A stretch of 46,661 bases of DNA from Candidatus Nanohalarchaeota archaeon (GTDB lineage: Archaea > EX4484-52 > B79-G9), in NCBI GenBank assembly GCA_003660865.1, contig QMVA01000001.1, positions 1-46,661 on the forward strand, given 5' to 3'. Of the stretch, positions 2,030-37,278 are shown piece by piece (position 1 is the first letter of the stretch; each line of letters opens with the position of its first letter). The notes beneath the pieces are model-generated. The model did no database searches. It was not told the origin of the DNA and saw nothing but the letters and a program-made list of their open reading frames with translations. Both the position numbers and the translations under genes were made by a program.

Positions 2030-2134
2030 GGTGTAATTATAGTTGGTTTATATTTAAATAGTTTACGATGGTATCGACAACAAATAGGTGGTTGTTTACG
2101 AGGGTAACGTAAACAATTCCATACGGGCGATAAA

Positions 2135-2243
2135 TGTGCTCCTAACATATTTAACCTGCTGGGCGCAAGAATATGCTATGCATGCTACGCGCAATCTCCA
2201 CATTCATAAGACCAGTACTTCGAATTCTCTTACAAGATGGTAC
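2135..2243 (+). repeat. Copy B of the 108/109-bp direct repeat (functional promoter plus 5' end of the acetyltransferase gene)
   Basis: Aligns to 771-878 (see copy A). It contains TATA atatttaa (2147-2154) and the ATG at 2178. Confidence 0.8.
2147..2154 (+). promoter_or_regulatory. TATA box for a leaderless acetyltransferase transcript
   Basis: atatttaa is centred about 28 nt upstream of ATG 2178. This spacing recurs at other genes in the window (for example 20234, 21129, 33149). Confidence 0.5.
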
Positions 2244-2663
2244 AGGGTTAAAAGTCCGTTCAGGGTTGTGTTTAATTTTTTCGTGATATATTCTGTCAGG
2301 TATTGTCCTTCGCTTGCGCTTAAAAGGGTGCTTCTTCGCGCGACAGGCATGAAAGTCGGTGCGAATACGTCGATTGCGCTTTCTGTAACTTTTGATATAT
2401 TCTTTCCTGAGCTTATAGAAATCGGTGAGAATTGCATAATTGGTTATAATGCAACGATACTTGCGCATGAGTTTCTTATTGATGAATACCGTACAGGCAG
2501 GGTGAATATTGGGGATAATGTGATGATTGGCGCAAATACAACTGTGCTTGCCGGTGTGACGATTGGGGATAATGCGCAGGTGTCTGCGATGACGCTTGTG
2601 AATAAGGATGTTTTGAAAAATGCGAAAGTGGGTGGGGTTCCATTAAGAAGTATTTCGAAATAA
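2178..2663 (+). CDS. Hexapeptide-repeat (left-handed beta-helix) acyl/acetyltransferase, WcaF/LacA-like
   Basis: Hexapeptide repeats are present (IGENCIIGYNATI, IGDNVMIGANTTV, IGDNAQVSAMTLV). The N-terminal LLRATGMKVG resembles WcaF-type LLRLFGAKIG. The start was set at ATG 2178 on promoter geometry; the track ORF begins at 2088 and GTG 2268 is also possible. Confidence 0.8.
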   Translation: MHATRNLHIHKTSTSNSLTRWYRVKSPFRVVFNFFVIYSVRYCPSLALKRVLLRATGMKVGANTSIALSVTFDIFFPELIEIGENCIIGYNATILAHEFLIDEYRTGRVNIGDNVMIGANTTVLAGVTIGDNAQVSAMTLVNKDVLKNAKVGGVPLRSISK

Positions 2664-2689
2664 TTGCCAGAAATGCGCTTTGCCTGAAA

Positions 2690-3205
2690 ATGTTGATTTT
2701 TGTAAATATAGTGGGGACTTTGTTTGGGTTCTGGTATTACAAGTTCCAGCTTGCGTCTACGCCGCTTGTGAAACTTGTTTTTGTGCCTGATTGTCCTATT
2801 TATACGCTGCTTTTCGCGTGCTTTCTTGTGCTTCATTTCATGGGGAAGAAGAGTGCTATACTTGCGACTGTGACTTTTATCGGACTTGTTAAATATGGGT
2901 TTTGGACCGTGCTTGTGATATCGCTGTATTGTGAATACTATGCTGCAAGCGATTTGTTTTTGTATGTGGTGCTATTCATTTTGCATATAGGGATGATTGC
3001 GCAGGCGTATGTTATCCCGCAAATATCGGGGTTTTCTAAAGATGCGCTGATGATTGCGCTTGTCTGGTTTCTTGCAAATGATGTCATGGATTACTTTTTT
3101 GGTACTGCGCCGTACCTGCCAGATTACATGTATCATAATCTTCTTTTTGTTGAAAGTACTTTAATGACAATAATCTTAGTGATATATTCAAGGAAATCTA
3201 TGTGA
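2690..3205 (+). CDS. DUF1405-like polytopic membrane protein
   Basis: 171-aa ORF with about 5 hydrophobic helices. The patterns NIVGTLFGFWYY and FVPDCPIYTLLFA recall DUF1405. The family assignment is from memory only. Confidence 0.6.
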   Translation: MLIFVNIVGTLFGFWYYKFQLASTPLVKLVFVPDCPIYTLLFACFLVLHFMGKKSAILATVTFIGLVKYGFWTVLVISLYCEYYAASDLFLYVVLFILHIGMIAQAYVIPQISGFSKDALMIALVWFLANDVMDYFFGTAPYLPDYMYHNLLFVESTLMTIILVIYSRKSM

Positions 3206-4062
3206 TGTATATGGACTGGTTCGTACTTTCACTTATTGGTATGGTTCTTTATGGAATCCAGAATTTCATATACAAAGTTGTTGCAGAGAAAAGGCTGAAT
3301 TCCGGTCTTGTGCTGTTGACAAGTTTTGTTACCGGTGCGATTCTTTCGGGGGTAGTCCTTTGTTTTTCTTTTAAATCGCAGGATAACTATTCTGTGATAT
3401 TTGCGTTTGCGGTTTTTCAGGCATCATTTTATCTCATATCGCGCTATGTCAAGATCGAATCGTTCAAATATATACCTGCGGTAGTGGCTTTGCCTATATC
3501 CCGTGTCCATTTTGCACTTACGGCACTGCTTGGGATAATCATATTGAATGAGCCATATAAGTCATATACTGTGCTTGGAATATTTCTCTTTTTGGGTGTG
3601 GTATTTATTTTGTCTAAAGGGTCTCATGTGAAAGATATAAGAGAATCGAATTTCAGGTCCGGGTTTGCATTGGCAATAGCGACTGCGTTTTTTACTACGA
3701 TATCAGAGTTTATGGTGAAAATCGCGGCAGTGCAGTATGATGTGAATCTGTTTATGTTCATGAGTTATGTCTGGCTTACGATTCCTTCCCATATCCTCAA
3801 TCGGAGGCTTAGTGACGAGAGAGATGACAGGAGAGTTGCGGTTATGTCCGGTGTTTTGATTGGGCTTTTTAATTTTGCTTCGTTTTTTACGGTTATGTGT
3901 GCACTCAAAGCAGGTCCTGCTTCTGTGATATTTCCTGTTATCGGGCTGAATATGCTGATTACTATTTTTCTTACGGTGATAATATATCATGAAAAGGTAA
4001 CTTATCAGAGGTTGGCTGCTCTCGTTCTTTCAATTGTTGCAATCATCCTGTTAAGGCAATAA
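3205..4062 (+). CDS. EamA/DMT-superfamily transporter
   Basis: About 285 aa with roughly 10 predicted TM helices in two similar halves. The ATG overlaps the preceding TGA (tGATG), suggesting translational coupling. The track starts at GTG 3202. Confidence 0.7.
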   Translation: MYMDWFVLSLIGMVLYGIQNFIYKVVAEKRLNSGLVLLTSFVTGAILSGVVLCFSFKSQDNYSVIFAFAVFQASFYLISRYVKIESFKYIPAVVALPISRVHFALTALLGIIILNEPYKSYTVLGIFLFLGVVFILSKGSHVKDIRESNFRSGFALAIATAFFTTISEFMVKIAAVQYDVNLFMFMSYVWLTIPSHILNRRLSDERDDRRVAVMSGVLIGLFNFASFFTVMCALKAGPASVIFPVIGLNMLITIFLTVIIYHEKVTYQRLAALVLSIVAIILLRQ

Positions 4063-4108
4063 GGGTTGTCTGTAAATCTATTTATACGACCTCGTTCAAA
4101 GAAAAGTT

Positions 4109-4507
4109 ATGAGTAATACGATTCCGAAAGCCCAGTCCGGTCTGGAACTGATGATGCTTATTTCATATTCGTTGCTTGTGTTTTCAGTGATTTACATCGT
4201 ATTCCTCCAGAGCAGTTTCACTACGATTAAGGAAAAAAGAGTTATGGAGTCACAGAAACTTGTGGAGATGATAGGATATGAGATAGATATTGCAACAAGT
4301 ATGGGTACTGGTTATTCAAAAAATGTGACTCTTTCTGATACGATATTGGGGGAGACATATAATGTAATTGTAGTTAGTAATCTTGTCATTGTGAATTCGT
4401 CACAAAGTTATACGGCCTCTATAATCACGTCGAATATAACAGGAACAATCCTGCCTGGTGACAATAGGATAGAAAACAGGGATGGTCAGATATATGCAAA
4501 TTTGTAA
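4109..4507 (+). CDS. Type IV pilin-like protein with class III signal peptide
   Basis: The N-terminus is MSNTIPKA/QSGLELMMLISYSLLVFSVIYIVF: K-A at -2/-1, Glu at +5, then a hydrophobic helix. This is the prepilin-peptidase substrate architecture. Confidence 0.75.
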   Translation: MSNTIPKAQSGLELMMLISYSLLVFSVIYIVFLQSSFTTIKEKRVMESQKLVEMIGYEIDIATSMGTGYSKNVTLSDTILGETYNVIVVSNLVIVNSSQSYTASIITSNITGTILPGDNRIENRDGQIYANL

Positions 4508-4508
4508 G

Positions 4509-5645
4509 ATGAGAAAAAGTCAGGTGTTGAGTCCTGATTTTACAATGAGCTTGGTAATATTTACGGCGATATTATTTTTGAGTTATACTGTATGGAATAC
4601 ATCGCAAGAGAAATCGATGCGGTTTTATGATACTGAACAGATGCAAAAGAAAGCGTTATATGTATCAGATATACTTCTGAATACGCCGGGTATTCCGCCG
4701 GACTGGAATACATCCAATGTACAGATGGCGGGCTTTAGAAATGTCGATTCAAGCACTTTGGACAGCGACAAACTGATTAATTTCAGACTGCTTGAATATA
4801 ATCGTTCGAAAGAAGTTCTTGGTCTCCGGTCGTATGATTATTGTATAAACATCACAGATCCGGAGGGTATGCTGCTGAAGTTGGATGGTGTCGTGACGGG
4901 TACTGCGGCAGTTTTCGCGACAGGCACCGATGATAACATAATAAAGGACTTTCTGGAAAATTACCAGAATGATTGGGATTACTACTGGGCAAGACCAGGT
5001 GCTGTGCCATCAAATAACGCTACTCATGTTTATCAGGATCCAAATCAAAATGACTTATTTGACGTACTAATCGACAATATCTCAAGTTATAACACAATAA
5101 TTATTGAAGGTATAAACGCATTGACAGTAACGGCAGCAGACGAAGTAAAAATACAAAATTTCGTTAGCGTTGGCGGGACATTTATAGATATCCAGGACGA
5201 TCATTTTGCGCAGCTTATTAAACACTTTGCGAATGTACCTGACGGAGAAAGTGCTGACAATTCAGATGAAATAGGAACAGCTATCAAAAAAGATATACTG
5301 CTTCCTGAGAAGGACGTTGGTGAGACAGTTACTTTTGAAACAGCAAAATTCAGATTCAATATGTCTGAAGTAGACAAGGCAATTGTGGAAAGCGATGGGC
5401 ATGCAGGGTATTGCATAGTATGCCTCTGGTACTACGGCAGCGGAAAGATATATTATTTGCCTGATGGGAGCAAAGACAACACTAAAGCCCCAGTTGATGG
5501 CATGGATTTTGATGGGATAGAGCTAATATATGGGAATGATGAGACATTACAGGCGGATGATGTCGTGCCAATAAGGCGCCTCATAACTATAGCTGGTGGG
5601 CAGGTTCCCAAAATAGGTTTAATGAATCTCTATATATACAAATAA
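4509..5645 (+). CDS. Pilin-like secreted protein (class III signal peptide) with large C-terminal domain
   Basis: The start was moved to ATG 4509 (MRKS/QVLSPDFTMSLVIFTAILF), directly after the upstream stop. K-S at -2/-1 is followed by a hydrophobic helix. No C-terminal domain was recognised with confidence. Confidence 0.7.
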   Translation: MRKSQVLSPDFTMSLVIFTAILFLSYTVWNTSQEKSMRFYDTEQMQKKALYVSDILLNTPGIPPDWNTSNVQMAGFRNVDSSTLDSDKLINFRLLEYNRSKEVLGLRSYDYCINITDPEGMLLKLDGVVTGTAAVFATGTDDNIIKDFLENYQNDWDYYWARPGAVPSNNATHVYQDPNQNDLFDVLIDNISSYNTIIIEGINALTVTAADEVKIQNFVSVGGTFIDIQDDHFAQLIKHFANVPDGESADNSDEIGTAIKKDILLPEKDVGETVTFETAKFRFNMSEVDKAIVESDGHAGYCIVCLWYYGSGKIYYLPDGSKDNTKAPVDGMDFDGIELIYGNDETLQADDVVPIRRLITIAGGQVPKIGLMNLYIYK

Positions 5646-5648
5646 AGG

Positions 5649-8600
5649 ATGATAAATATGACAGTCCAAAAAAAGGCAATAATGTTTACGACAGATGCTT
5701 TAATAGGGATGTCTCTTTTGATTATTGCCGCAGCAATCATTTTCTCGCAGGATGCTTCCAGAATGCCTTATAGGTATACGTTTGAGCAGGCGAATGTCAT
5801 ATCTGAAGATTTTGTAAGTATGTTGTCATCTATCGAATTCAGCAGTGTAAATGAGACACTTAGAGAATCAATAATCTCTGACACAAATGTGAGTTCAGAT
5901 GACTATGGTGAAGATTTAGTATATATTATTGGCGCGTTGTGGGCAGAGAATTCAACGATATCAATGAGCTATGCAAGACAACTTACACAGGCATATATTG
6001 GTGCGTTGATACCAGTAGGATATAGCTATGGCCTGTTTATTGATGATGAGGAAATATATTCTGATTCCAAGGGGGATTATGGGGTACTTTCAGCATCAAA
6101 GCGCATGATTTCAGGTATCCATGAGGGACTTCCCACGAAAGGAATCTCAACGAGAGTATCAATAAGCAATATCCTCTCGAAAAATACAGCAAAATTCATA
6201 TATTTCGGCGGGTTTGTGGGCGAAGGAAATATCACAAAAATATTCATGCTTCCGGATGCAGTAGGCAGTGTGACTAATGTCTATATTGAAATGGATGCCG
6301 GGACCAATTTCACAATGAGTGTCAACGAAAACTTTGCAGGTACATACACAATGAGCAGTATGGTTCCGATGTATGCAAATAACTGGACAATGCCTTCATC
6401 ATATTATTCACTATTTAGTCCCCGGGAGAACACAATCCAAATCAATTTTACGGACGCGCAAAACAGCTATATTGGTGGCGGATATATTAAAGTCGCGTAC
6501 AATACCTCGCAAATGGATACGACTATGATTGATTTGGATAACGGCAATGTATCGGAAAGGTATGGTTTTCCCGGTATCAATGGTTTCATAAATCTATACT
6601 CATCGTTTTATGTGCCTGGTACTCTTAATTCAATGCGCATCTATCTGCACATTTTCAATCCCTATACGACTTTCTTATATGTAGGCAATACAAGAGTGTA
6701 TCAAAATCAGACAAATCAGACGCAACATATATACATAAATGATACCGCTCTTTCATCCATGCTGAATTATGCATCAATGAGCGAAGCTACGATACCTATT
6801 CGTTTTGGTGTGAAGAATATGACGGGACTGGGCTTTGGAAGTGATGTGGTTGAAGTTACGGATCTTTCCGGGAGTATGGGTACTTTTGATGTGCAGCCAG
6901 GAAATCAGGAACGTATTGCTGTGGCTAAGGTATGTGACAAGGAGTTTGTGGATACAGTTTTGGCTAATGAGGGCCAGAGAGTCGGGCTTATAGCGTATGG
7001 CACAAGTACTGACAACAGCAGGACAGTGTATCTTACAGATAATAATGTGACATTAAAAGCTATGATTGATGGGTATGATCATGATCTGAGTTGGACGTGT
7101 ATCTCCTGTGGTGTGAAAAGCGCAACAGATATGCTTGTGTCAACAATCAATGTAACCACAGTCGTAAACAATGGCACCATATGGTACTATAATGACAGTT
7201 ATCTAAACACAGAACCGCCGGATGACAGTGAAGGACGCAAATGGTATGAATACAATTATACTCTCACTTCCGAATGGGATACAGGAAACGGTGTCTTCGG
7301 TGCAGGATCAGCATCAATGCCTATAACAACGTTACTCACAACAGCAGGAAGCAGTGGAAACCGAACTTATGTTAATCTGTGGGATGATAACATAACTACA
7401 ATTCCTGTCAGTTTTGAGACAGGATATAACTCCACAGCAAATACATATGGTTGGAACATGGGAGACGATGGCTGGGACCACGATTTGCAGGACAATAGTG
7501 GTCCTTATGGATATGATGACAATATTGATTACAATCTTGTGGTCAACGGGATGCTGGAGTTTGATACAAGAACAGGTGCACCTGCACGGAACCGGTGCGC
7601 TGGTTACGATTGCTCCGGAGCATACGGGATTCAGATGGATATAACACCAGAGGCATATAGTATTTTGTCAAGTTCAGGAATGGCAAAACTGTCATTCAAA
7701 TATGAATGGGACGGAAACGATGATCCTTTTTGGAATAGCGACGAAGTCTGGATCAAGGCACGATGGACAAGTCCGACCACAGGTATTCATTATCTTGGAA
7801 GTGAACTTTCCAGCGCAGGAGGCGACACAACTCCAGAAATTGATTTTCGTGACAATCCGAATAATGATATCCCTCTAACAAACACAGTTCACACTATGAC
7901 AAATAGGATTGAAGGTCCCGGGACATACTATCTTGAAATAGGAGGCAAATTATTGGCAAGTTGGTGGTCTGGTTCTAATAAATGGGGCTACTTCAGGTTT
8001 GACGATATTCTTTTGGAAATCAAAAACGGAACAGATACATACTATTTTAGGAAAAATTTTACTATAGATGATGTGAACAAGGTTGGCAGAGGTTTCCTAA
8101 AAGTTGTATCAGATGACATGGCAGATATATACTTGAACGGAGAACTGATAGACGCGGATCCCGGACCAGAACATGATGCAGATTACTGGAATCGTATTGA
8201 GTTTATCGACAGGTCTTATTTCAGGCAAGGAAGCAATGTTTTATCTGCTAAATTATATAACACTATAGGTTCTACGCGATTTGACCTGAAACTTGAAACA
8301 TTCAATAATTCAAGGAACAGGGCAATGTTGATTATGAGCGATGGAGGCGCAAATAGGTGCTTTGGCGCTTGTCCTGAAGGCGCAAAAAAGCAGGCAATAA
8401 ACTTTGCATGTGATGCTTATGAAAATTATGGGATAATATCTCATGCGGTTGGTTTTGGTGTGCCCCCGTCACTTGATGAGGAGACTCTCCAGAGTATTGC
8501 GGATTGCGGACGGGGCATGTATCGCTCAAGCAATAATGCGGATGAGTTAAAACAGATATATCAGGATATCGCAAATGCAATGATAAGCTACACTACCCAA

Positions 8601-9404
8601 AGGTCAAATATTACAGGTGAGTATACAATCACGACACTTTACCCCGATTCGTATATAGAATATAATTATACGCCATCTGTTGATCTTGATTATGGTGAAA
8701 TATCACTTACGTTTGATAGTCTCACGTTTGGTGAAACATCCGGCAACCCAGGTGTGGAAAGCCCAAAAAACGGCTCATACTGGATTCCGCCATCTGTTGA
8801 AGTCATTGATGCAAAAGCAACATCGTATTCTTCAGAGTTCTGGACAAGCATTCTAAACGTGAGAAACGAAACGTCCGGTTGGGTTAATGTATACAACTTA
8901 AGTACGTATGGAGATGATTTTACAAAGTTCGGTGATCCATATATTGTCTTCATGCCTGTATCGCTCATAGGGCAGAACCAGACCAATTATGTGCAGATAA
9001 ATACTGGCACCAATGAAACATATTTCACTGGCGGGTCGCCTGACAGTAAGGTGATATATACTATAAAAATCAAGGGAATTGCGAGTTACGGTGAGATATC
9101 TCCCAAGGCAGACGGGTGTGAATGGGTAGTGGAGCAATACAACGGCAATAACGCTACAATAAAAATTCCATCGGACTATAACGGGACGAAGACTTGCGAG
9201 TTTTCAAGTGCGCAAATAGTCTATGATCATGATGATTCAATAGACAATGCGGCAATCTTACTGCTGCAGCAACTTGATGTGACGGGCGATAACAGAATAG
9301 ATATTGCGATAGACCAGACTAATATCAATATATGTATAATAAAAGTTACAGATATCCCATGGATGTGGGGACCTGCGATTTTGAAACTTGAAATATGGAA
9401 GTAA
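5649..9404 (+). CDS. Giant pilin-like surface protein with a split von Willebrand factor A (vWA) domain
   Basis: The N-terminus is ..QKKA/IMFTTDALIGMSLLIIAAAII (class III-like). A MIDAS DLSGSMG motif sits at D405 (nt 6861). The conserved vWA Asp motif MLIMSDGGAN (D898) sits near nt 8340. I counted about 30 N-x-S/T sequons by eye. An alternative start is ATG 5658, which has better spacing from the aagga Shine-Dalgarno sequence. Confidence 0.8.
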   Translation: MINMTVQKKAIMFTTDALIGMSLLIIAAAIIFSQDASRMPYRYTFEQANVISEDFVSMLSSIEFSSVNETLRESIISDTNVSSDDYGEDLVYIIGALWAENSTISMSYARQLTQAYIGALIPVGYSYGLFIDDEEIYSDSKGDYGVLSASKRMISGIHEGLPTKGISTRVSISNILSKNTAKFIYFGGFVGEGNITKIFMLPDAVGSVTNVYIEMDAGTNFTMSVNENFAGTYTMSSMVPMYANNWTMPSSYYSLFSPRENTIQINFTDAQNSYIGGGYIKVAYNTSQMDTTMIDLDNGNVSERYGFPGINGFINLYSSFYVPGTLNSMRIYLHIFNPYTTFLYVGNTRVYQNQTNQTQHIYINDTALSSMLNYASMSEATIPIRFGVKNMTGLGFGSDVVEVTDLSGSMGTFDVQPGNQERIAVAKVCDKEFVDTVLANEGQRVGLIAYGTSTDNSRTVYLTDNNVTLKAMIDGYDHDLSWTCISCGVKSATDMLVSTINVTTVVNNGTIWYYNDSYLNTEPPDDSEGRKWYEYNYTLTSEWDTGNGVFGAGSASMPITTLLTTAGSSGNRTYVNLWDDNITTIPVSFETGYNSTANTYGWNMGDDGWDHDLQDNSGPYGYDDNIDYNLVVNGMLEFDTRTGAPARNRCAGYDCSGAYGIQMDITPEAYSILSSSGMAKLSFKYEWDGNDDPFWNSDEVWIKARWTSPTTGIHYLGSELSSAGGDTTPEIDFRDNPNNDIPLTNTVHTMTNRIEGPGTYYLEIGGKLLASWWSGSNKWGYFRFDDILLEIKNGTDTYYFRKNFTIDDVNKVGRGFLKVVSDDMADIYLNGELIDADPGPEHDADYWNRIEFIDRSYFRQGSNVLSAKLYNTIGSTRFDLKLETFNNSRNRAMLIMSDGGANRCFGACPEGAKKQAINFACDAYENYGIISHAVGFGVPPSLDEETLQSIADCGRGMYRSSNNADELKQIYQDIANAMISYTTQRSNITGEYTITTLYPDSYIEYNYTPSVDLDYGEISLTFDSLTFGETSGNPGVESPKNGSYWIPPSVEVIDAKATSYSSEFWTSILNVRNETSGWVNVYNLSTYGDDFTKFGDPYIVFMPVSLIGQNQTNYVQINTGTNETYFTGGSPDSKVIYTIKIKGIASYGEISPKADGCEWVVEQYNGNNATIKIPSDYNGTKTCEFSSAQIVYDHDDSIDNAAILLLQQLDVTGDNRIDIAIDQTNINICIIKVTDIPWMWGPAILKLEIWK

Positions 9405-9408
9405 TTAT

Positions 9409-10515
9409 ATGCCTAAAGGATTTGCTTATACTCTGTTTGTGCTGACAGTAACATTATCGTTAGTTACGATGATAAGCATACATGCATCATCTGAAAATAC
9501 TATTGAAACACCATCGAGAATCAGGAGCAGTCTGTTGTTAACTGTCTTGAATGATATAAATGATGACCTCTCGAGAAGTTCATATATCGCAACTAAAAGA
9601 GCAATCTTAAGTTTAGTTGACTATATGGTAACTAATGGAACATTTATTAATGATACGGAGTCTGCTATATTTTATGCGAGTACAACCGGAGAGTATAATG
9701 GATCAGCACTTTCATTAATGGAAAACACAACAATCAATGACTGGACTGTGTCAATACAGGATATACTGGGTAAAATGGGTGTAGAAGGTACGGTTACTCT
9801 TGAAAGCTACACAATCAGGCAGAGGGACTTATACAATATCGAGCTTGCAACGGTCTATGAGTTGGATATTTATGATCCTATCTCTACAATTCGCATGAAA
9901 AGGAATACAACGCAAAATGTGACGATTGATTATAATTCTTTTGAGGATCCTCTTAACACTGTCAAGAGTAACCTGCTGTTTTCAACGGCATATCTGATGT
10001 GCAACATGTCCGGAGCATACGGCAAGGCGCTGGTGTCGGAAACAAATGCAACGAACTGGACTGTCGGGAGAGTATTTAAGTCAACTGGTCCGGGTGATAT
10101 TGTTTCGTTGTCGAGTAGCGTGAGGGCTGGAAGAATACTTATTACGCACAATATCTCAAGCTATGCACTGTCTGACATAGAGGAGTTTAAAGGCGTGATA
10201 TCTGAAACATCCGACGACCTCGCAGGTGTTACGATACCAAAAATCATAGGGACAGGCGATGCTTGTTCTAATACTGATGGGTCTTATATCGCGGCGATGA
10301 GTACAGAGATAGATAGATGGATAAATAGTATCATGACGTCTCAAGGAACTACATGTTTCATTGAACATGAATTAGGACCTACGTTCTTTGATCGCATGGA
10401 GGGAAATATAACGTATGGCAGATATAGCGGACCTGGAATTGCAACGTTTATAGACCCTACTATCCTGCCGAAAAACCCGCAAAAAGAACTTGATTTTGTA
10501 TACTGGAGCCCGTAG
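9409..10515 (+). CDS. Pilin-like secreted protein (class III signal peptide)
   Basis: The start was set at ATG 9409 (MPKG/FAYTLFVLTVTLSLVTMI): K-G at -2/-1, Phe at +1, then a hydrophobic helix. Many N-x-S/T sequons are present. The track ORF starts at 9388, inside the previous gene. Confidence 0.7.
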   Translation: MPKGFAYTLFVLTVTLSLVTMISIHASSENTIETPSRIRSSLLLTVLNDINDDLSRSSYIATKRAILSLVDYMVTNGTFINDTESAIFYASTTGEYNGSALSLMENTTINDWTVSIQDILGKMGVEGTVTLESYTIRQRDLYNIELATVYELDIYDPISTIRMKRNTTQNVTIDYNSFEDPLNTVKSNLLFSTAYLMCNMSGAYGKALVSETNATNWTVGRVFKSTGPGDIVSLSSSVRAGRILITHNISSYALSDIEEFKGVISETSDDLAGVTIPKIIGTGDACSNTDGSYIAAMSTEIDRWINSIMTSQGTTCFIEHELGPTFFDRMEGNITYGRYSGPGIATFIDPTILPKNPQKELDFVYWSP

Positions 10516-22439: not shown

Positions 22440-23474
22440 GTGAAAGATATAACTGAAAACAAAAGCAACATCATCAAAAAAAAAGAGAACAGTAAAGAAT
22501 ATAACTCTCTTATTTCCTCTATAGGCATCCTTTTAGAAGATGCAAGAAAAAAAGTTTACATGCAGGTTAATCAAATCCTTGTCAAGACATATTGGGAAAT
22601 CGGAAAAAATATTGTTGAATTCGAACAGAAAGGAAAAGAAAGAGCAGAATATGGCACTAAGTTATTTGAGACATTAGCAAAGGATTTGAGACAGAAATAC
22701 GGAAAAGGATTTAGTAGAAGTAATGTAATCTATATGAGAGTGTTCTATTTCAAGTATCCAAAAAGTCAGACACTGTCTGACCAATTGACATGGAGTCACT
22801 ATATAGAGCTTCTGATGGTTGGTGATGACCTTGAACGTTCATTTTATGAAAAACAGTACATCAAAGAAAGATGGTCTGTAAGAGAACTTAAATGACAGAA
22901 AAATTCTTTGCTCTTCGAGAGAATTTCTATGAATAAAGATACGGTAAGCGTTTTGGAACTGGCTCAAAAAGGGTACACTATCAAGAAAGCAGAAGATTTG
23001 ATAAAAGACCCCTATGTGTTGGAGTTCTTGGGAATTTCTGAAAATCGAGCATATTCTGAAAAAGAACTGGAGCAAAGCATAATTGACAATTTACAAAATT
23101 TTTTGCTGGAATTAGGAAAAGGTTTCACTTTCGTTGCCAGACAATTTAGAATTAGCCTGGGAAACAGGCATTACTATGTTGATTTAGTATTCTACCATAG
23201 AATCCTGAAATGCTTCGTGTTAATTGATTTGAAAATAGGTGAAGTAACTCATGCTGATGTTGGTCAGATGAACATGTACCTGAATTATTTCAGAAAAGAA
23301 GAGATGACGAAAGAAGATAATGAGCCTGTTGGAATTATACTTGCCAAAGAAAAAGAAACAATTGTTGTGGAGTATGCCTTAGGTGGATTATCTAACAAGT
23401 TGTTTGTATCGAAGTATAAACTATACCTACCAAGCAAAGAAGAGCTGGAAAAAGAAGTAGAAAGACTGATTTAG
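22440..23474 (+). pseudogene. DUF1016 / YhcG-like PD-(D/E)XK nuclease gene interrupted by one in-frame TGA
   Basis: The two track ORFs (22440-22895 and 22908-23474) are in the same frame. Reading through gives ...WSVRELK*QKNSLLFERISMNKD..., which is contiguous with the usual DUF1016 WSVRELerqi.s.LfER motif. The C-terminal half carries the nuclease-core pattern YYVDLVFYH...LIDLKIGE. Confidence 0.7.
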
Positions 23475-26011: not shown

Positions 26012-26803
26012 CTAATATTTTTGAGTAGCTCTTTTCACCGCCTCTTTCATCTCCCGGACAAACTTGCCAATCTCATCAACTATCTTCTTTTTGTCATCCA
26101 GATTCTTCTCAATAATCCTGACAATGGCGCTGCCGACAATTACTCCATCAGCTCCTGCGGTAACAATCTTTTGCGCGTGCGCTGGTTCAGAAACCCCGAA
26201 ACCCACAAGAACCGGAACGTCAGTCTTCTCCGTGACCTTTCGGACAAGGTCCAATGTATCGTGTGAAACTCCCTTTCGCGCGCCGGTAACCCCAAGTATA
26301 GACACAAGATATATGTACCCGGACACGTTTTTCAAAATCAGAGATATTCGCTCATAAGTAGTAGTCTGTGAAATAATGAATACAGTATCAACCCCGTGAT
26401 TCCTTGCAGCATCCAAGAAAGGTCCTGCCTCCTCAATAGGAACATCAGCTACAAGCACATAATCAACACCTGCATTGTGCGCATCAGCATAAAAGTTGTC
26501 AATTCCCCGGCGGTGAACAAGGTTAGAATAAATCAACAGACTAATCGGTATCCTGGAATACTTTCTTATCTCCTGAATCATCCTGAAGGACGAATCAACA
26601 CAGGCGTCATTATCAAGCGCCCTTTTGTCTGCAAGCTGTATGGTGGGGCCGTCAGCGACAGGGTCAGAAAATGCAAACCCCAGCTCAAGCATGTCAGCCC
26701 CTTCATCAATCATCTTCATGATGATCTTTTTGGAAGTGTCATAATCCGGATCCCCGACAACTACAAAAGGAACAAATATCTTCCTTTTACCAAACACATT
26801 CAT
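26012..26803 (-). CDS. trpA: Tryptophan synthase alpha chain
   Basis: 263 aa with [17 protein letters not shown] and GFGVS motifs. Its start overlaps the trpB stop by 4 nt. Confidence 0.95.
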
Positions 26804-27966
26804 TTCATCACCCTCATCACATGTTCCATATCCTTATCCCCTCTTCCCGAGAGATTCACAATAATAATGTCCTCTTTTTTCATCTTCTTTGCAACTTTGA
26901 GAGCATAAGCAACCGCATGTGCAGATTCAAGCGCAGGAATAATTCCCTCTAAAAGAGAAAGTTCCTTAAATGCAGATAACGCTTCCTTATCAGTGATGCC
27001 TACATACTCTACACGCCCTGCATCCTTAAGCGCACTATGCTCGGGACCCACACCGGGATAATCAAGTCCTGCTGAAATCGAATATGCCTCATTGATCTGT
27101 CCGTCTTTATCCTGCAATATATAGGAAAGCGATCCATGCAATATGCCGGGTTCACCCCTGCACAAAGATGCGCCATGTTTATTTGTATCCATCCCAAGTC
27201 CTGCTGCCTCAACACCATAAAGTTTTACGTCATCTGACAGGAACTTAAAAAACATCCCGATTGAATTCGACCCGCCGCCGACGCACGCAACAATAGCATC
27301 TGGCAGTCTGCCTTCAACATCCATAATCTGCTTTTTGGTCTCCTCACCGATGACCCTCTGGAAATCGCGTACAATCATAGGATATGGATGCGGTCCCACA
27401 ACAGACCCAAGTACATAATATGTATCCCGGACATTAGCAATCCAGTCGCGCAGTGCCTCATTTACAGCATCCTTAAGGGTACCTGCACCGGATGCTACCG
27501 GAACCACTTCTGCGCCGCACAATTTCATGCGAAAAACATTCAGCTTCTGGCGCTCAATATCCAGAGTACCCATAAAGATGTAGGTCCTGATGCCAAGCAA
27601 TGCCCCAACAGCCGCAGTTGCAACACCGTGCTGCCCGGCGCCCGTTTCTGCAATCAGGCGCGTCTTGCCCATATACTTTGCCAAAAGCCCCTGGCCAAGA
27701 GTATTGTTTATCTTATGTGCCCCTGTATGGACCAAATCCTCCCGCTTAAGATAAATCCTACAGCCATACTTGCACGATAAATTCCCTGCGAAATAGAGTG
27801 GCGTAGGCCGTCCGGCATAATTTTCAAGAAGTCCATGCAATTCCTTTTTAAAGCCTTTATCATCCTTTAATTTAACATACGCGCGCTCAAGCTCTTCAAG
27901 CGCAGGCATGAGCGTCTCAGGCACAAACATGCCCCCGTATTTTCCGAATCTTGTATCTATCTTCAT
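26800..27966 (-). CDS. trpB: Tryptophan synthase beta chain
   Basis: 388 aa with the PLP-lysine region HTGAHKINN and GGGSN. Confidence 0.97.
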
Positions 27967-28592
27967 AAGTAATCCCTCTTTGTAATCTCTATAAACTTCT
28001 TCATCTTATCATGGTCTTTCCTACCGGGCGCTGACTCAATACCACTGGAACAATCCACTGCATACGGCCTGACTGTCTCAATAGCAGATCTGGCATTGTC
28101 GATGTTCATCCCGCCTGAAAGCACAATGGGCTTTTCAAAAGAAAATCCGCTAAGCACACTCCAGTCAAAGACATCCCCTGTCCCACCGGCAATATCTTTC
28201 TTATAAGTATCAAAAAGAATCGCATTAATATAAGGCTCATATCGCTTAACCTGCAATAGGCTGGACTTGTCCTTTATTCTGAATGCTTTGATGACATTAC
28301 AGAACTGCGCACAGTACTCACCTGACTCATTGCCGTGAAACTGCAGGGCAGTCAGCCCGCAATAAGAGTGGATCTCGCGCACGACATCTTCCTTTTCATC
28401 CACAAACACCCCGACTTTCGCAACAAAAGGCGGAAGATATCTTATAATTTCCTTTGCTGTATCCTTATGTATACAGCGCGGACTTTTTTTATAGAATATG
28501 AAGCCGAGTGCATCAGCCCCAAGCTCAATTGCCTTTATCGCATCTTCTAGATTCGTTATCCCGCAAATCTTAATTCTTATCATAAAAATCAC
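27963..28592 (-). CDS. trpF: Phosphoribosylanthranilate isomerase
   Basis: IKICGIT and LQFHGNE motifs are present, about 205 aa. An alternative start is ATG 28583. Confidence 0.9.
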
Positions 28593-29367
28593 TTAGCTCT
28601 TTTAGTTTTTCTTCTATATCTCCTTTCATAATCGTGGTGCCTACAAGCACAGCATCAATATCTGCCTTTTGTAAAAATACTATATCTTCCTTTGCCATTA
28701 TCCCGCTCTCACTAACAATGACTACACCAGAAGGTATCTGTTTCGATAGTTCAATAGTGGTATTCAAATTGATTGTCATTGTCTTCAGGTCCCTGTTGTT
28801 TATGCCTATAATGTCTGCGCCTGAGCGGATAGCAATATCCAGTTCATCTCTGTCATGTGCTTCAACAAGACAATCCATACCCAATCCTTTTGCAATATTG
28901 ATGAAAGTTTTCAGTTTTGCCTTATCAAGTATAGACACTATCAATAATACGGCATCTGCGCCGTAATATCGCGATTCATATATCTGGTACTCATTAATTA
29001 TGAAATCCTTCCTGAGTACAGGCAAGCTTGTATTTTCTTTTGCAAGAGACAAATACTTCAAAGAGCCGCTAAAATATACATTATCAGTCAGTACTGATAC
29101 TGCACTTGCATGTTTATCATAAAGTTTCAGTATCCTCAATACCTCATCATCACCTGCATCTCTTATCTTACCTGACGCTGGAGACGCGAATTTCAATTCT
29201 GCAATAAGTTTCGGTGACGGGGTGCCGTCCCGTATTACTGCCTGCCTGAATCTTCCGTCGCTCTTTTTGATTCCGCCAATAAATGACACAAGAGGTATAT
29301 CTACTCTTCGCTGCTCAACTTCATTTTTCTTATTTTCTATAATTTCAGAAATAATATCAGTTCGCAT
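28570..29367 (-). CDS. trpC: Indole-3-glycerol-phosphate synthase
   Basis: Contains IAELKFASPASG, LRKDFI and IGINNRDL motifs. Confidence 0.95.
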   Translation of the reverse strand: MRTDIISEIIENKKNEVEQRRVDIPLVSFIGGIKKSDGRFRQAVIRDGTPSPKLIAELKFASPASGKIRDAGDDEVLRILKLYDKHASAVSVLTDNVYFSGSLKYLSLAKENTSLPVLRKDFIINEYQIYESRYYGADAVLLIVSILDKAKLKTFINIAKGLGMDCLVEAHDRDELDIAIRSGADIIGINNRDLKTMTINLNTTIELSKQIPSGVVIVSESGIMAKEDIVFLQKADIDAVLVGTTIMKGDIEEKLKELSDFYDKN

Positions 29368-30367
29368 TTGTAATCTCCTTCAGTTTCTCAAGTGCCTGTA
29401 GCGCTTTTGTGCTCTCTATTGATTTTATCGCAAGAGGCAGTGCATCTTTTATTGTATCTGCACCGCCACTGGCTGCGATTGCAGCTGCAGCATTCAATAT
29501 CGTTATGTCATATTTCGGACCTTTTTGGTTGTTCAGAATATCAAGTGTGATCTTTGCATTTTCCTCTGGTGTTCCGCCAATAATTTTTGAGATATTTACA
29601 GTGTCAATTCCAAAATCCTCTGGTCTGACAGTATATGTGCTTATTTTACTGTCTCTTAATTCAGTGATTCTCGTTTCCCCGCAGATGCTTATCTCGTCGA
29701 GTGGATAGCCGTGAACAATATATGCGCGCTTTGTACCAACGTTCAGAAGCACTTTTGCAAGCGGTTCTGTAAGGCCAGGATCATAGACGCCGATGAGTTG
29801 CGCTTTTGCCCAGGCAGGATTTGTGAGCGGTCCGATAATATTAAATATTGTCCTTATGCCTATCTCTTTTCGCGGGCCTATTGCGTATTTCATTGCTGAG
29901 TGAAAATGCGGTGCGAATAAAAACCCGATATTTGCATCCTCTATGCATTTTGTGACAGTTTCCGGTGAAACATCAATCCTGACACCAAGAGAAGAGAGCA
30001 CATCACAAGACCCGCTTTTGCTTGAGACAGACCTGTTCCCGTGCTTGGCGACAGGGATGCCTGCACCGGCAACCACGAAGGCTGCTGTGGTTGAGATGTT
30101 GAATGTGCCTGTGCTGTCTGCCCCTGTACCGCATGTATCGACAAGCATGTCCATTTTCGGTGCAATTTTAAGTGCTTTCTCTCTCATGACGTGGACAGCG
30201 CCTGTTATCTCATCTATTGTCTCACCTTTCATGCGAAGCGCGCACAGAAAACATGCAATCTGCGCATCAGTTGCACCGCCGTTCATTATCTGCATAAAAA
30301 CATCTACTGTTTCCTTTTCAGAAAGATTCCTGCCATCCACAACTTTGGATATTGCCTGCTTTATCAT
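29357..30367 (-). CDS. trpD: Anthranilate phosphoribosyltransferase
   Basis: Contains VDTCGTGADSTGTFNIST and KHGNRSVSSKSGS motifs. Confidence 0.95.
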   Translation of the reverse strand: MIKQAISKVVDGRNLSEKETVDVFMQIMNGGATDAQIACFLCALRMKGETIDEITGAVHVMREKALKIAPKMDMLVDTCGTGADSTGTFNISTTAAFVVAGAGIPVAKHGNRSVSSKSGSCDVLSSLGVRIDVSPETVTKCIEDANIGFLFAPHFHSAMKYAIGPRKEIGIRTIFNIIGPLTNPAWAKAQLIGVYDPGLTEPLAKVLLNVGTKRAYIVHGYPLDEISICGETRITELRDSKISTYTVRPEDFGIDTVNISKIIGGTPEENAKITLDILNNQKGPKYDITILNAAAAIAASGGADTIKDALPLAIKSIESTKALQALEKLKEITNAN

Positions 30368-30960
30368 AGTTTATCACCTTTTACAATTGAGATCATATTC
30401 TCGATCATCTTTCCGCCGACAGGCGTAAGTATCGACTCAGGATGAAATTGTACACCCTCAACCATATATTTCTTGTGGCGCACTCCCATCACAACACCGC
30501 TTTCAGTCTTTGAGGTAATCTCAAGGCACGCCGGCAGATCCAAAGCAGCAAGCGAATGATACCTGCCGCAGGCAAACGGGCACTCAATCTCCTTATACAG
30601 TGTCTTGTTGTCGTGAAATACAAGCGAAGTCTTGCCGTGCAGGGTCTCATCTGCTACACCTACTTTTCCGCCGAATGCTTCAACAATCGCCTGGTGCCCA
30701 AGACATATCCCAAACACAGGGATCTTCCCGCAGTATTTTTTGATGATATCAATGCATATGCCTGCATCACCGGGCGCTCCCGGTCCCGGAGAGATTACAA
30801 TCTGTTTTGCATTGTGTTTCTGTATCACATCATCAATGTGCTCTATGGAAACATCATTCCTGTAGGTGATCACATCATGTCCCCTTTTCTCAAACTCATC
30901 CACCAGATTATAGGTGAATGAATCAAAATTATCAATCAACAGGATTTTCATATTCCACAC
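30364..30960 (-). CDS. trpG: Anthranilate synthase component II (glutamine amidotransferase)
   Basis: Contains ILLIDNFDSFTYNL, the catalytic GICLGHQ, and FHPES. An alternative start is ATG 30951. Confidence 0.95.
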   Translation of the reverse strand: MWNMKILLIDNFDSFTYNLVDEFEKRGHDVITYRNDVSIEHIDDVIQKHNAKQIVISPGPGAPGDAGICIDIIKKYCGKIPVFGICLGHQAIVEAFGGKVGVADETLHGKTSLVFHDNKTLYKEIECPFACGRYHSLAALDLPACLEITSKTESGVVMGVRHKKYMVEGVQFHPESILTPVGGKMIENMISIVKGDKL

Positions 30961-32554
30961 CGCCAGTCATCTCAATTGCCGAAAGGCACGCCTTAGCTTT
31001 TTTTACAGTTTCCTCAAACTCTTTTTCAGGTACAGAATCATAGACAATACCTGCCCCTGAGCGAATATAGGCTGCATCTCCCTTTATCTGCATGGACCTG
31101 ATAATGATAGTGGAATCAAAATCCCCGTGAGGCGTAAGATAAGCAACGACCCCGCCGTAATAACAGCGCTTATTCTTCTCTGCCTCCCGTATAAGTTCCA
31201 TTGCCCGGATCTTCGGGGCGCCTGTAAGTGTGCCCATATTCATGGACGTGAGATACGCATGAAGCGCATCCATATCATCTCTCAAAATCCCGCTCACATT
31301 AGACACAATATGCTGGACATGAGAATACTTTTCAACAATGAAGGGTTCATCGACAATGCGCGTACCTGGTTTCGATACCCTTGCAATGTCATTTCGTGCG
31401 AGATCGACAAGCATCACATGCTCAGATACCTCTTTTCGGTCAAGTTTCAGCTCTATCTCGTACTTCGCGTCAAGATCTGCGTCTATTTTTCCATCTGCGA
31501 TGCCTCTTGGGCGCGTACCTGCAATTGGCCGTATCTCTACCTTTTTTTCTTTTTCACCTTCGACACGCAGCGCCATCTCTGGTGAGGCGCCAAGAAGAAC
31601 TGAATCACTGAAATAGATATAAAACATGTAGGGAGAGGGGTTCAGGCGCCTAAGGGTGCGGTATATGTCAAGGGGTTCGGCATTGTATTCTGTTATTATG
31701 GTGCGTGACGGTACTGCCTGGAATATGTCTCCACATCTGATATGTTCTTTTAGCTTATTCACGATACCTGTGAATTTTTCTTTTGATATGTCGCTGTGGA
31801 TATGGACTTTCTTTTTTCTGTAATTGCGCGGCTTTGGGACAGATTGTTCCATTACCTGTATATACTTGTCGATTGTCTTTTTGCACTTCAGGAGAACATC
31901 TGAATTATCTTTGTCGACGAGTGCGTTCGCAATAAGATAAGTGATATCATTCTTGTGGTCGAAAACAAAGAGGTTATCTGCAAAATACATCTCATAGTCC
32001 GGTGTCTTCAGGATGTCGTGCCTGTTTTTTGGAAGGTCTTCAAACTGGTCAATAAAATCATAGGATATGGCTCCAAGCAGGCCCCCGTAGAAAGTTAGAG
32101 GTTTTGCAGTGGGCTTGAACCTGTATGCGATAGCGCGTAAGATATCGACATGTGTCTTTTGGTTTAGGCGCTCTCTTTCAGAAAGGTTCTTATCATGTTT
32201 TGGTTTCAGTGTCCCGGTGATCTGTGTCTTTTCATATCTTATGGAGTCGCAAAAAGACAGGTCATCCTTTATCAATTTGAGAAACTTTTCTCCTGTCTCA
32301 TTGAATGCTGTAATCCCGAAATGGGTATCTTTCCCGGATACTTTTAGGCACGGTGCGGCAGTCCCCATGCTGAACTGCGCATACTTGGCAGATACAGATG
32401 CAGACTCAAGAAGCAGGCAATGCGGATTGCGCCCGTAATCAGAAAGCTTGGCAAAGAATTCTACAGGGCACTTAAGTCCTTTTACGACTTTATAGATCGG
32501 AATAATCTCTCCTGGTTTTGCAGATGCAAGATTTTCCGCGCCAAAGATATCCAC
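30932..32554 (-). CDS. trpE: Anthranilate synthase component I
   Basis: 540 aa with chorismate-binding motifs (NPSPYMFY, GTLTGAPK, YGGVVAY). The start is GTG, preceded by GGTGA about 9 nt upstream. Confidence 0.93.
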   Translation of the reverse strand: MDIFGAENLASAKPGEIIPIYKVVKGLKCPVEFFAKLSDYGRNPHCLLLESASVSAKYAQFSMGTAAPCLKVSGKDTHFGITAFNETGEKFLKLIKDDLSFCDSIRYEKTQITGTLKPKHDKNLSERERLNQKTHVDILRAIAYRFKPTAKPLTFYGGLLGAISYDFIDQFEDLPKNRHDILKTPDYEMYFADNLFVFDHKNDITYLIANALVDKDNSDVLLKCKKTIDKYIQVMEQSVPKPRNYRKKKVHIHSDISKEKFTGIVNKLKEHIRCGDIFQAVPSRTIITEYNAEPLDIYRTLRRLNPSPYMFYIYFSDSVLLGASPEMALRVEGEKEKKVEIRPIAGTRPRGIADGKIDADLDAKYEIELKLDRKEVSEHVMLVDLARNDIARVSKPGTRIVDEPFIVEKYSHVQHIVSNVSGILRDDMDALHAYLTSMNMGTLTGAPKIRAMELIREAEKNKRCYYGGVVAYLTPHGDFDSTIIIRSMQIKGDAAYIRSGAGIVYDSVPEKEFEETVKKAKACLSAIEMTGGVEYENPVD

Positions 32555-35565: not shown

Positions 35566-35718
35566 AACAACACCTCCTTGTGATATATCTAAGAATAAGA
35601 ATAAGAACAGCGTAATATAAACCTTGTCAATACATACCTTGCCGATAGAGTCCAAATTTCGTGATAATCCGACATATTTAAAAATAATTGACCATCAATA
35701 TAATTGGACGTGATTCTA

Positions 35719-36453: not shown

Positions 36454-36464
36454 TAATATTTGGA

Positions 36465-37226: not shown

Positions 37227-37278
37227 AACAATTATTGCTACTTTAAAATATTTAAATGTGTTAATCGAATTGAGATGT

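Follow-up and report, generated by a model that had tools for sequence, protein, structure and literature searches.

Archaeal type IV pilus (T4P) loci of clade 1, also referred to as 'system 1' or Epd-type, have been reported in methanogens, Thermococcales and DPANN archaea and bacterial Tad pili are considered to descend from pili of this type (PMC4858521; preprint 10.64898/2026.04.22.720090). These loci are predicted to encode at least five minor pilins with class III signals and large DUF2341 "PilY-like" tip adhesins (Makarova 2016, PMC4858521); the only von Willebrand factor A (vWA) proteins discussed in that work are cytoplasmic ArnB-type regulators and bacterial TadG. The DPANN archaea are mostly tiny episymbionts whose attachment to their hosts is poorly understood, and a study of Nanohaloarchaeota published in 2022 found Tad-like clusters but "no pilins were annotated" (PMC9563170). 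This report addresses a four-gene operon, encoding open reading frames (ORFs) 1 to 4, in contig QMVA01000001.1 of assembly GCA_003660865.1, which was analysed over its whole length of 46,661 nucleotides (nt), hereafter called the window. The four genes probably encode the minor pilins and the vWA adhesin of an Epd/Tad-like type IV pilus whose machinery is encoded elsewhere in the genome; in this interpretation, the module would belong to a pilus system widespread in DPANN-type archaea.

An earlier reading of the window, made from the sequence only (the sequence-only reading), had proposed that these genes encode an undescribed archaeal pilus-tip or adhesion complex. The vWA-bearing family is indeed unannotated: its members are named "hypothetical" or "VWA domain-containing" in databases, and none of the four window proteins belongs to a Pfam family. 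However, the idea of minor pilins associated with a large tip adhesin dates to Makarova 2016 (PMC4858521), so that only the pilin-like family bearing a vWA domain, with its conserved partners, is undescribed. The result is incremental rather than surprising, since the presence of both minor pilins and large adhesins in T4P loci of archaea had already been predicted.

Conservation of the module and linkage with type IV pilus genes

The positions of the four adjacent plus-strand ORFs (132, 378, 1251 and 368 amino acids, aa) and the 1-4 nt gaps between them were reproduced, the successive gaps being 1, 3 and 4 nt. The opposite strand of 4109-10515 contains only short ORFs of 70-98 aa. A TATA-like box upstream of ORF1 (Table 1) is a possible archaeal promoter of the operon, and an alternative ATG of ORF2 at 4482 would add 9 residues to this protein.

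The family to which ORF3 belongs is large. A phmmer search with its N-terminal 400 aa retrieved 582 clusters at 50% identity, 480 of them at E ≤1e-10, and nearly all the hits listed match from one of the first ~15 target residues onwards. The relatives, which number in the hundreds and measure 840-1760 aa, come mostly from metagenome-assembled genomes (MAGs) labelled Woese-, Aenigmat-, Nanohal-, Nano-, Alti- and Micrarchaeota. When one genome per GTDB species was scanned, 408 stretches were found to encode an ORF3 relative. The ORFs of 84 fetched loci were called and searched by phmmer and hmmsearch. The 80 retrieved loci belong nearly all to MAGs of uncultured archaea, mostly with DPANN labels.

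In 35 of the 54 loci with adequate flanks on both sides, the ORF3 relative (family F3) is surrounded by relatives of ORF1, ORF2 and ORF4 (families F1, F2 and F4), in the conserved order F1-(second F1 paralog)-F2-F3-F4 and under several archaeal phylum-level labels. The four families, which the sequence-only reading expected to co-occur elsewhere, thus do so in these 35 informative loci with their order kept. Six loci with adequate flanks possess F4 and are devoid of F1 and F2. More generally, F4 is the most constant partner of the ORF3 family, as it follows F3 in 53 of the 70 loci with a downstream flank, while F2 is present in 39 of the 58 loci with an upstream flank. Furthermore, F3 and F4 are duplicated in tandem in loci L026 and L048, and the F3-F4 pair looks like the core unit of the module.

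Machinery linkage in 24 related loci supports a tie between the module and type IV pili: each of them carries a T2SSE ATPase gene and two T2SSF platform genes within 10 kb of the module, usually with pilin genes. The commonest layout, on one strand, consists of F4, a ~381-aa winged-helix/coiled-coil protein, a ~550-aa ATPase, a ~271-aa platform protein, a ~430-515-aa platform protein and the pilins, which are one or two proteins of 150-185 aa beginning K-G-Q-A-A-M-E-F-L-M-T-Y-G-W. In L017, Pfam detects T2SSE (1.6e-33) and, twice, T2SSF (~1e-15). Among NCBIfam models, those of FlaI/TadA are the nearest to the linked ATPase, under every cut-off. One platform gene aligns to the N half of ArlJ/FlaJ and the other to the C half, which indicates a platform split in two genes. 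A 156-aa pilin of the major-pilin type (E = 2e-34) is encoded 7 kb upstream of F3 in L001, the 79%-identical relative of the window, and the position that matches it lies past the left edge of the window.

N-terminal signals

The N-termini that the sequence-only reading quoted for the four proteins were confirmed: MSNTIPKA/QSGLE (ORF1), MRKS/QVLSPD (ORF2), MINMTVQKKA/IMFTTD (ORF3) and MPKG/FAYTLF (ORF4). All four are flagged by our own FlaFind-like rule, which searches the first 60 aa for [KR][GAS] followed by a 19-aa core with a mean Kyte-Doolittle hydropathy >1.5; indeed, each of them displays a short basic leader, the [KR][GAS] pair and ~20 hydrophobic residues. As the rule flags only 61 of 978 background ORFs (6.2%), taken from these loci with a minimum length of 150 aa, four of four would be expected by chance with a probability of ~1.5e-5. 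The feature is shared by the families, since 60 of 74 F1, 45 of 55 F2, 70 of 80 F3 and 53 of 56 F4 members (81-95%) are flagged.

Type IV pilins carry a near-invariant acidic residue in their hydrophobic segment (E5 in bacteria). After [KR][GAS], the F1 proteins generally have Q at +1 (56/60) and E at +5 (56/60), followed by F/Y at +6. The putative major pilins of related loci have the same form of motif (Q+1 and E+5 in 27/28 each), and so do the small pilins located beside the machinery in complete loci (KGQAAMEFLMTYGW). The F2 motif includes Q+1 (40/45), W+3, D+6 (41/45) and F+7, that of F3 is KK[GA]/[FIV]xF[TS]xDAxxA with D+6 (65/70), A+7 and A+10 (60/70), and that of F4, KK[GAS]/[FVI]F[YF]T, lacks an acidic residue. 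Such family-specific residues (Q/E in F1, Q/D in F2, D in F3) argue against a passive anchor, which would not need them; the outcome that would have contradicted the sequence-only reading, ordinary Sec signals or transmembrane (TM) anchors, is therefore not borne out, each of F1, F2 and F3 keeping specific residues. Concerning the Glu at +5 of ORF1, its presence was verified, but the likeness to bacterial type IV pilins drawn from it did not stand, as this residue is better read as part of the archaeal Q-x-x-x-E class III motif (PF04021).

The N-terminal segments of the families were also compared by hhalign, which gave probabilities of 96.6% for F1 and the major pilin (31 residues), 87.5% for F3 and F4, 77% for F2 and F3 and 56% for F1 and F2. 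All similarity between families vanishes after removal of the first 28 mature residues. What the families have in common lies in the N-terminal ~30-100 residues, a restriction that type IV pilins usually show.

Some Woesearchaeota-type loci, namely L020 (14999-20352, minus strand), L034 (10563-15903, minus strand) and L010, encode four further proteins whose N-termini are class III-like. This second set is accompanied by a ~905-aa protein with a bacterial thrombospondin type 3 (TSP3) repeat and is located on the opposite strand, just past the F1-F4/DUF192 module.

The large vWA protein

The sequence-only reading had assigned a vWA domain with a metal ion-dependent adhesion site (MIDAS) to the 1251-aa protein, and this assignment holds. 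The MIDAS is complete, D405, S407, S409, T483 and D898 being invariant in 20 homologs; in a 46-sequence alignment, S407 is conserved in at least 90% of the sequences and the four other residues are invariant. The F3 family profile matches vWA structures in two pieces (4rck and Mfa5, 6tnj), and homologs of ORF3 carry Pfam PF00092/PF13519. By contrast, Pfam gives no match on the window ORF3, whose vWA domain is missed because an insert splits it, and residues 35-397 have no match even at E ≤10.

The insert was delimited by BLASTP: residues 8-496 and 888-1250 of ORF3 align to contiguous sequence in an 839-aa relative, P0081, which identifies residues ~497-887 as an insert in the vWA domain. This insert varies among members of the family, being absent in some, ~390 aa long in others, and ~760 aa long at the same vWA site in P0011, a protein that carries Pfam DUF2341 and Laminin_G_3 (LamG). 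The insert of P0042 is partly different. No segment of ORF3 itself matches DUF2341 in Pfam, this domain being present only in some relatives (P0011, P0034 and P0070).

An AlphaFold2 (AF2) model of residues 1-1200, built from the 46-sequence alignment (mean predicted local distance difference test, pLDDT, of 78.3), predicts a hydrophobic helix (15-33), a helical region (39-120), a beta-rich region (128-390), vWA elements (398-515), a beta-rich region extending to ~890, further vWA elements (890-980) and beta domains (1000-1175), both sets of vWA elements consisting of alternating beta/alpha. Foldseek comparison of this model with the PDB also retrieved vWA structures, namely ITIH1 (5e-7), PilB of Streptococcus sanguinis (7b7p, 5.8e-5, prob 1.0), Mfa5 (1e-4) and a BatA-like protein (1.4e-4). 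Many beta-sandwiches of the sugar-binding type (GH2 enzymes, BcsB, reelin, Cry toxins) were retrieved too, and in the model they probably correspond to the beta-rich regions of ORF3. The top 50 Foldseek matches include no PilY1 structure.

The partner proteins

ORF1 has the leader MSNTIPKA and a predicted mature start, QSGLELMML, that displays Q+1 and E+5; these residues, Q9 and E13 of the precursor, are invariant in 20 aligned relatives. The F1 relatives, counted with the round-0 profile only because iteration drifted into ORF3 relatives through the common N-terminal segment, form two subfamilies, of which the window holds one. The F1 paralog of L017 matches Class_IIIsignal (PF04021) with E = 4e-4 and 20.7 bits, under the cut-off of 23.7, whereas ORF1 itself receives no score from PF04021 even at E ≤10. 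The F1 relative of L003 reaches 26.6 bits with DUF7266, a haloarchaeal family, just under the cut-off of 27.6.

ORF2 begins with the leader MRKS, followed by QVLSPDF (Q+1, D+6, F+7) and a hydrophobic helix, and has no Q/E pair. Its family exists as short (~170-190 aa) and long (~370-400 aa) forms, and the central domain of the long form is weakly similar to the GATase1-like trimerisation domain of glycoside hydrolase family 42 (GH42) beta-galactosidases: the F2 profile matches residues 464-612 of 4oif in the PDB (E = 1e-3) and the L017 homolog matches Pfam Glyco_hydro_42M (E = 0.005). The NCBI-derived call of ORF2 (P0193) is a protein of 342 aa, 36 residues shorter than the 378-aa ORF. Presumably its start lies downstream and the leader and hydrophobic segment are lost; starts called downstream in this way would help explain, in part, why pilin annotation misses such proteins.

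ORF4 possesses the leader MPKG, then FAYTLF and a hydrophobic helix, and is devoid of an acidic residue. As a word-based homolog search with ORF4 only found 9 close relatives, a profile made from the locus sequences was used instead. The AF2 model (49 sequences, mean pLDDT 59) is confident, at about 85-92, for residues 1-180 only, and its C-terminal half is unreliable. It predicts a helix at 2-76, two short helices and a three-stranded antiparallel sheet at 126-174, and this modelled helix-plus-sheet would correspond to a generic pilin layout.

Proposed function and alternative explanations

According to the preferred interpretation, the N-terminal hydrophobic helix would insert each of the four proteins in the membrane, and a prepilin peptidase encoded elsewhere would cut the basic leader of 4-10 residues after [KR][GAS]. 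The N-terminal helices would then hold the four proteins together in a complex with a priming or accessory role, beneath which a FlaI/TadA-type ATPase and a split platform would extend the major pilin of the Q-A-A-M-E-F type. ORF3, with ORF4 as its putative obligate partner, would be displayed on the filament. The tip is the most plausible place, and there the metal site of the MIDAS and the inserted beta-sandwich module might bind a ligand carried by a surface or by another cell. Leader cleavage, incorporation into the filament, tip position and ligand binding are proposed by analogy with bacterial minor-pilin/PilY1 complexes and with S. sanguinis PilB. In the source lineage, the module would be separated from the motor genes, which would act in trans.

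Several results weigh against this interpretation. None of the four window proteins is called a pilin by Pfam or NCBIfam, the only informative match, even at E ≤10 and with ORF3 sub-segments, being a weak fragment of Bat-like vWA. Neither the F1 nor the F4 profile has a significant match to solved pilins or archaellins among PDB sequences, and Foldseek finds nothing under E = 1e-3, and no pilin, for the ORF4 model. A match of the F1/F4 profiles to an archaellin N-terminus at E = 0.5 was not taken as evidence. Hydrophobic composition could have raised the scores of N-terminal similarity, and for F3 and F4, which lack the Q/E signature, a plain signal anchor is compatible with the sequence. Twelve loci, mostly labelled Aenigmatarchaeota or 'uncultured archaeon', encode an ORF3 relative alone, without F1, F2, F4 or machinery, which indicates that ORF3-type proteins can exist outside a pilus locus. 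As the sequence-only reading had stated, assembly machinery and peptidase are absent from the window, no T2SSE ATPase, T2SSF platform or Peptidase_A24 being detected by Pfam scans that covered most ORFs of at least 100 aa, including all the long non-overlapping ones. However, the linkage found in relatives corrects the weight given to this absence, which is a trait of the source lineage and not of the module. Finally, no A24 prepilin peptidase is encoded in any 10-kb flank of the related loci, where multi-TM ORFs were checked. The multi-TM candidates are signal peptide peptidase (SPP)/presenilin, M50, EamA and major facilitator superfamily (MFS) proteins, and those with GxGD are SPP/presenilin or M50. 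Prepilin peptidases are often encoded apart from the pilin genes in many archaea; therefore, this absence is uninformative rather than negative.

The lack of machinery and peptidase in the window, the lone ORF3 relatives, the absence of the Q/E signature in F3 and F4 and the fold search with ORF4 could also be explained by a pilus-independent adhesin complex, in which glycosylated proteins would be tethered to the membrane by uncleaved signal anchors (type II topology) and the linkage to T4P genes would reflect only a common cell-surface regulon. Such a complex would also suit the closest sequence-level matches of the vWA domain, which are membrane-anchored Bat-type proteins (PRK13685, 4rck, 4jdu). 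We consider it unlikely. The Q+1/E+5 motif of F1 is that of the pilins of complete loci, a passive anchor would hardly account for the buried Asp that F2 and F3 keep almost invariantly at +6, the leaders are all short, basic and terminated by G/A/S, and in many loci the module lies directly upstream of the ATPase and platform genes on the same strand.

A T4P-type machinery could alternatively build a short pseudopilus or bindosome-like assembly, that is, an envelope structure dedicated to the capture of substrates such as glycans or DNA. The sugar-binding-type beta-sandwiches among the fold matches of ORF3 and the weakly GH42-like central domain of ORF2 would suit this function, and the F1 paralog and the ATPase weakly match the BasB and BasE models, although far under the cut-offs. 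Substrate-binding proteins of the Sulfolobus bindosome carry class III signals too (the topic is treated in preprint 10.64898/2026.04.22.720090). However, the module has no linked ABC (ATP-binding cassette) transporter or substrate-binding protein, the complete loci have dedicated small pilins of the major-pilin type, and vWA domains with a MIDAS typically serve as adhesins when they occur on pili (Raynaud 2021, PMC8179133), so that an assembly of this kind appears distinctly unlikely.

A Bat-like (BatA/BatB) or MoxR-associated vWA membrane system unrelated to pili, suggested by the Bat-type best NCBIfam and PDB sequence matches of the vWA part, is very improbable and was rejected, because its partners (MoxR ATPase, DUF58 and tetratricopeptide repeat Bat proteins) are absent from the window and not recurrent in related loci, ORF3 is four times the length of a Bat protein with an N-terminal 400 aa unrelated to Bat, and the synteny of its family is with T4P genes. 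An archaellum was likewise rejected, as the related loci are devoid of archaellin, FlaH and FlaF/G-type genes.

Within the preferred interpretation, a minor-pilin and vWA adhesin module of type IV pili, the four co-occurring families and the candidate major-pilin family would account for the pilin and adhesin side of Tad-like DPANN loci, with an adhesin family of several hundred clusters at 50% identity. A broader proposal, possible though doubtful, is that the module is a DPANN-wide unannotated cassette for attachment through the pilus tip, in which an exchangeable ligand-binding vWA insert, together with the tandem F3-F4 duplications, would set the choice of host cell or surface of the episymbiont. 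If true, the cassette would fill the place of the 'missing pilins and adhesins' in the Tad-like pili of DPANN archaea and would provide a sequence handle on host specificity. As a further possibility, the adhesin may act without a pilus in the source lineage and in Aenigmatarchaeota-type genomes, which lack nearby machinery.

Neighbouring genes

Table 1. Coordinates of the operon, of the segments of ORF3 and of associated features in the window
Feature	Position	Strand	Remarks
TATA-like box TTTATA	4081-4086	+	starts 28 nt 5' of ORF1 ATG; possible promoter
ORF1 (F1 family)	4109-4507	+	132 aa; small pilin-like protein
ORF2 (F2 family)	4509-5645	+	378 aa
ORF3 (F3 family)	5649-9404	+	1251 aa; database call begins at M4 (5658)
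ORF3 residues 1-34: leader M(INM)TVQKKA, IMFTTDALIG (D+6), hydrophobic helix	5649-5750	+	family motif
ORF3 residues 35-397: family-defining helical and beta-rich N-terminal region	5751-6839	+	AF2 pLDDT mostly 80-94
ORF3 residues 398-496: vWA first half	6840-7136	+	MIDAS D405-x-S407-x-S409 (6861-6875), T483 (7095-7097)
ORF3 residues 497-887: variable beta-sandwich insert within vWA	7137-8309	+	BLASTP against P0081; AF2
ORF3 residues 888-980: vWA second half	8310-8588	+	MIDAS D898 (8340-8342)
ORF3 residues 981-1251: conserved C-terminal beta domains, W-G-P...W tail	8589-9404	+	conserved columns; AF2; kept in P0081
ORF4 (F4 family)	9409-10515	+	368 aa
Coiled-coil protein, no TM segment	10520-13141	-	873 aa; convergent with ORF4
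DUF192 (COG1430) protein, N-terminal membrane segment	263-727	-	association only
Second DUF192 gene	34702-35061	+	

The genes flanking the operon are housekeeping genes, for which reason a viral origin was set aside. Homologs of the 873-aa coiled-coil protein adjoin the module at the same position in L001, L002, L005, L006, L007, L009 and L035 and are encoded just upstream of F1 in L003 and L037. The protein includes a near-exact tandem duplication of 75 aa (residues ~326-400 and 401-475) and ends in a P[VI]II[DE] tail shared with the L003 homolog, which resembles the DUF7310 coiled-coil region. Judging from synteny, it is a probable cytoplasmic accessory of the module in the source lineage; coiled-coil proteins have been noted in some haloarchaeal T4P loci (Makarova 2016, PMC4858521).

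The association with DUF192 proteins is a weaker link. A DUF192 gene directly follows F4 in nine loci (L011, L012, L014, L020, L022, L028, L030, L032 and L034) whereas in window-type loci, the window itself included, such a gene is found on the opposite strand at a distance of 3.5-4.9 kb upstream; its product may represent an accessory of these pilus loci that has escaped recognition.

The sequence-only reading had described the proteins as dense in N-glycosylation sequons, which proved true for three of the four. N-X-S/T sequons occur at 1.85, 2.72 and 2.99 per 100 aa in ORF2, ORF3 and ORF4, respectively (z = 2.4, 4.7 and 3.3 against composition-matched shuffles), for a median of ~0.5 (range 0-2.1) in 29 other window proteins, but ORF1 shows no significant enrichment against shuffles (z = 0.9). 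The enrichment of ORF2-4 fits extracellular exposure. The glycan-synthesis cluster reported nearby was also recovered: it begins at 13531, 3.0 kb past ORF4, and comprises genes for a UDP-sugar dehydrogenase, a family 2 glycosyltransferase (GT2), an epimerase, a PIG-L deacetylase, an unknown 552-aa protein and a methyltransferase.

Other genes of the neighbourhood were recorded as side observations. Just upstream of the operon, 2088-4062 (plus strand) encodes a hexapeptide acetyltransferase that resembles heptaprenylglyceryl-phosphate O-acetyltransferase (below cut-off), a DUF1405 protein (LhaT-like) and an EamA transporter. This neighbourhood is kept at least in part in L001, L009 and L035, and it may be a cassette for lipid or lipoprotein modification. 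In loci with a lone F3 gene such as L004 (Aenigmatarchaeota), L045 and L060 (labelled 'uncultured archaeon'), proteins of ~375 aa and ~206 aa are encoded ~0.1-2 kb upstream on the opposite strand. The former has AAA and faint Vps4_C Pfam matches in L004, and the two proteins may form a pair similar to the endosomal sorting complexes required for transport (ESCRT). Elsewhere in the window, 22440-23474 (plus strand) encodes DUF1016_N (22440-22895) and a YhcG_C PDDEXK nuclease domain (22908-23474), the halves of one YhcG-type nuclease, which probably reflect a disrupted gene or a sequencing frameshift.

The archaeal markers of the window are two genes of the PcrB/geranylgeranylglyceryl phosphate (GGGP)-synthase family, UbiA prenyltransferase, TrmB, class I lysyl-tRNA synthetase (LysRS), a full trp operon and one tRNA-Pro. 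The nearest MAGs are labelled inconsistently as Nanohalarchaeota, Aenigmarchaeota, Methanosarcinales or plain "archaeon", and the source is here treated as an uncultivated DPANN-type lineage without commitment to a phylum. The complete trp operon, the two convergent PcrB-family genes and UbiA lie at 26012-32554 (minus strand) and 35704-38100. Biosynthetic capacity of this kind is lacking in typical reduced DPANN genomes; the nearest MAGs are DPANN-labelled, with conflicting labels.

Comparison with known systems

The closest described systems are the Epd-type/system 1 pili of Methanococcus, Methanobacteriales and Thermococcales. Like these, the related loci encode a FlaI/TadA-type ATPase, a split platform and Q-x-x-x-E pilins, several more proteins with class III signals and one very large predicted adhesin, and some ORF3 relatives (P0011, P0034 and P0070) contain DUF2341. 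Assignment to system 1, based on the split platform and the pilin motif, is tentative, as subsystems 4A/4B can also have two platform genes (preprint 10.64898/2026.04.22.720090). However, the large protein of the present loci has as its core a MIDAS vWA domain that contains an insert, an architecture described neither in PMC4858521 nor in the preprint. Furthermore, no EppA-type peptidase was found in the related loci, and F2, F4 and the N-terminal domain of ORF3 belong to no Pfam family.

The bacterial FimU-PilVWX-PilY1 and GspHIJK modules share with the operon the association of about four pilin-like proteins with a large adhesin and a predicted role in priming and at the tip. The likeness to minor-pilin and PilY1/PilC tip-adhesin modules put forward by the sequence-only reading is confined to organisation; no sequence homology with FimU-PilVWX-PilY1/GspHIJK was detected. 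GspK and PilX lack the conserved acidic residue, as does F4. The bacterial PilY1 is not a pilin and has a C-terminal beta-propeller, whereas ORF3 has its own pilin-like N-terminus.

TadE/TadF/TadG also combine small pseudopilins with a vWA protein, TadG, that has an N-terminal hydrophobic segment, and their system has a split platform, TadB/TadC. The TadB/TadC-type system is thought to derive from archaeal Epd-type pili (preprint 10.64898/2026.04.22.720090), and TadG was proposed to be a membrane anchor (Makarova 2016, PMC4858521, citing earlier work). The present proteins differ from them in their sizes and extra domains, and ORF1-4 have no match with Tad/TadE-like Pfam families at E ≤10.

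The use of a vWA domain as a fimbrial tip adhesin is shared with Mfa5 of the type V pili of Porphyromonas gingivalis (6tnj), to which the profile gives E = 1e-4 and Foldseek 26% identity and a root-mean-square deviation (rmsd) of 2.8 Å over 111 columns. However, type V assembly, through protease-mediated strand exchange, is unrelated and Mfa5 has no class III signal.

S. sanguinis PilB (7b7p; Raynaud 2021, PMC8179133) combines, like ORF3, a class III-type N-terminus and a vWA domain with an intact MIDAS, following the logic of a pilin-anchored adhesin. It is bacterial and far smaller, the 7b7p chain comprising 420 residues, and sequence homology with ORF3 is undetectable outside the vWA domain. 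Compared with PilB, ORF3 adds a ~360-aa N-terminal domain, a ~390-aa vWA insert and ~270 aa of C-terminal beta domains. ORF3 combines a pilin-like N-terminus with a conserved N-domain and with a MIDAS vWA domain whose insert is swappable, a design that parallels that of Gram-positive modular pilins and gives testable candidate determinants of host recognition.

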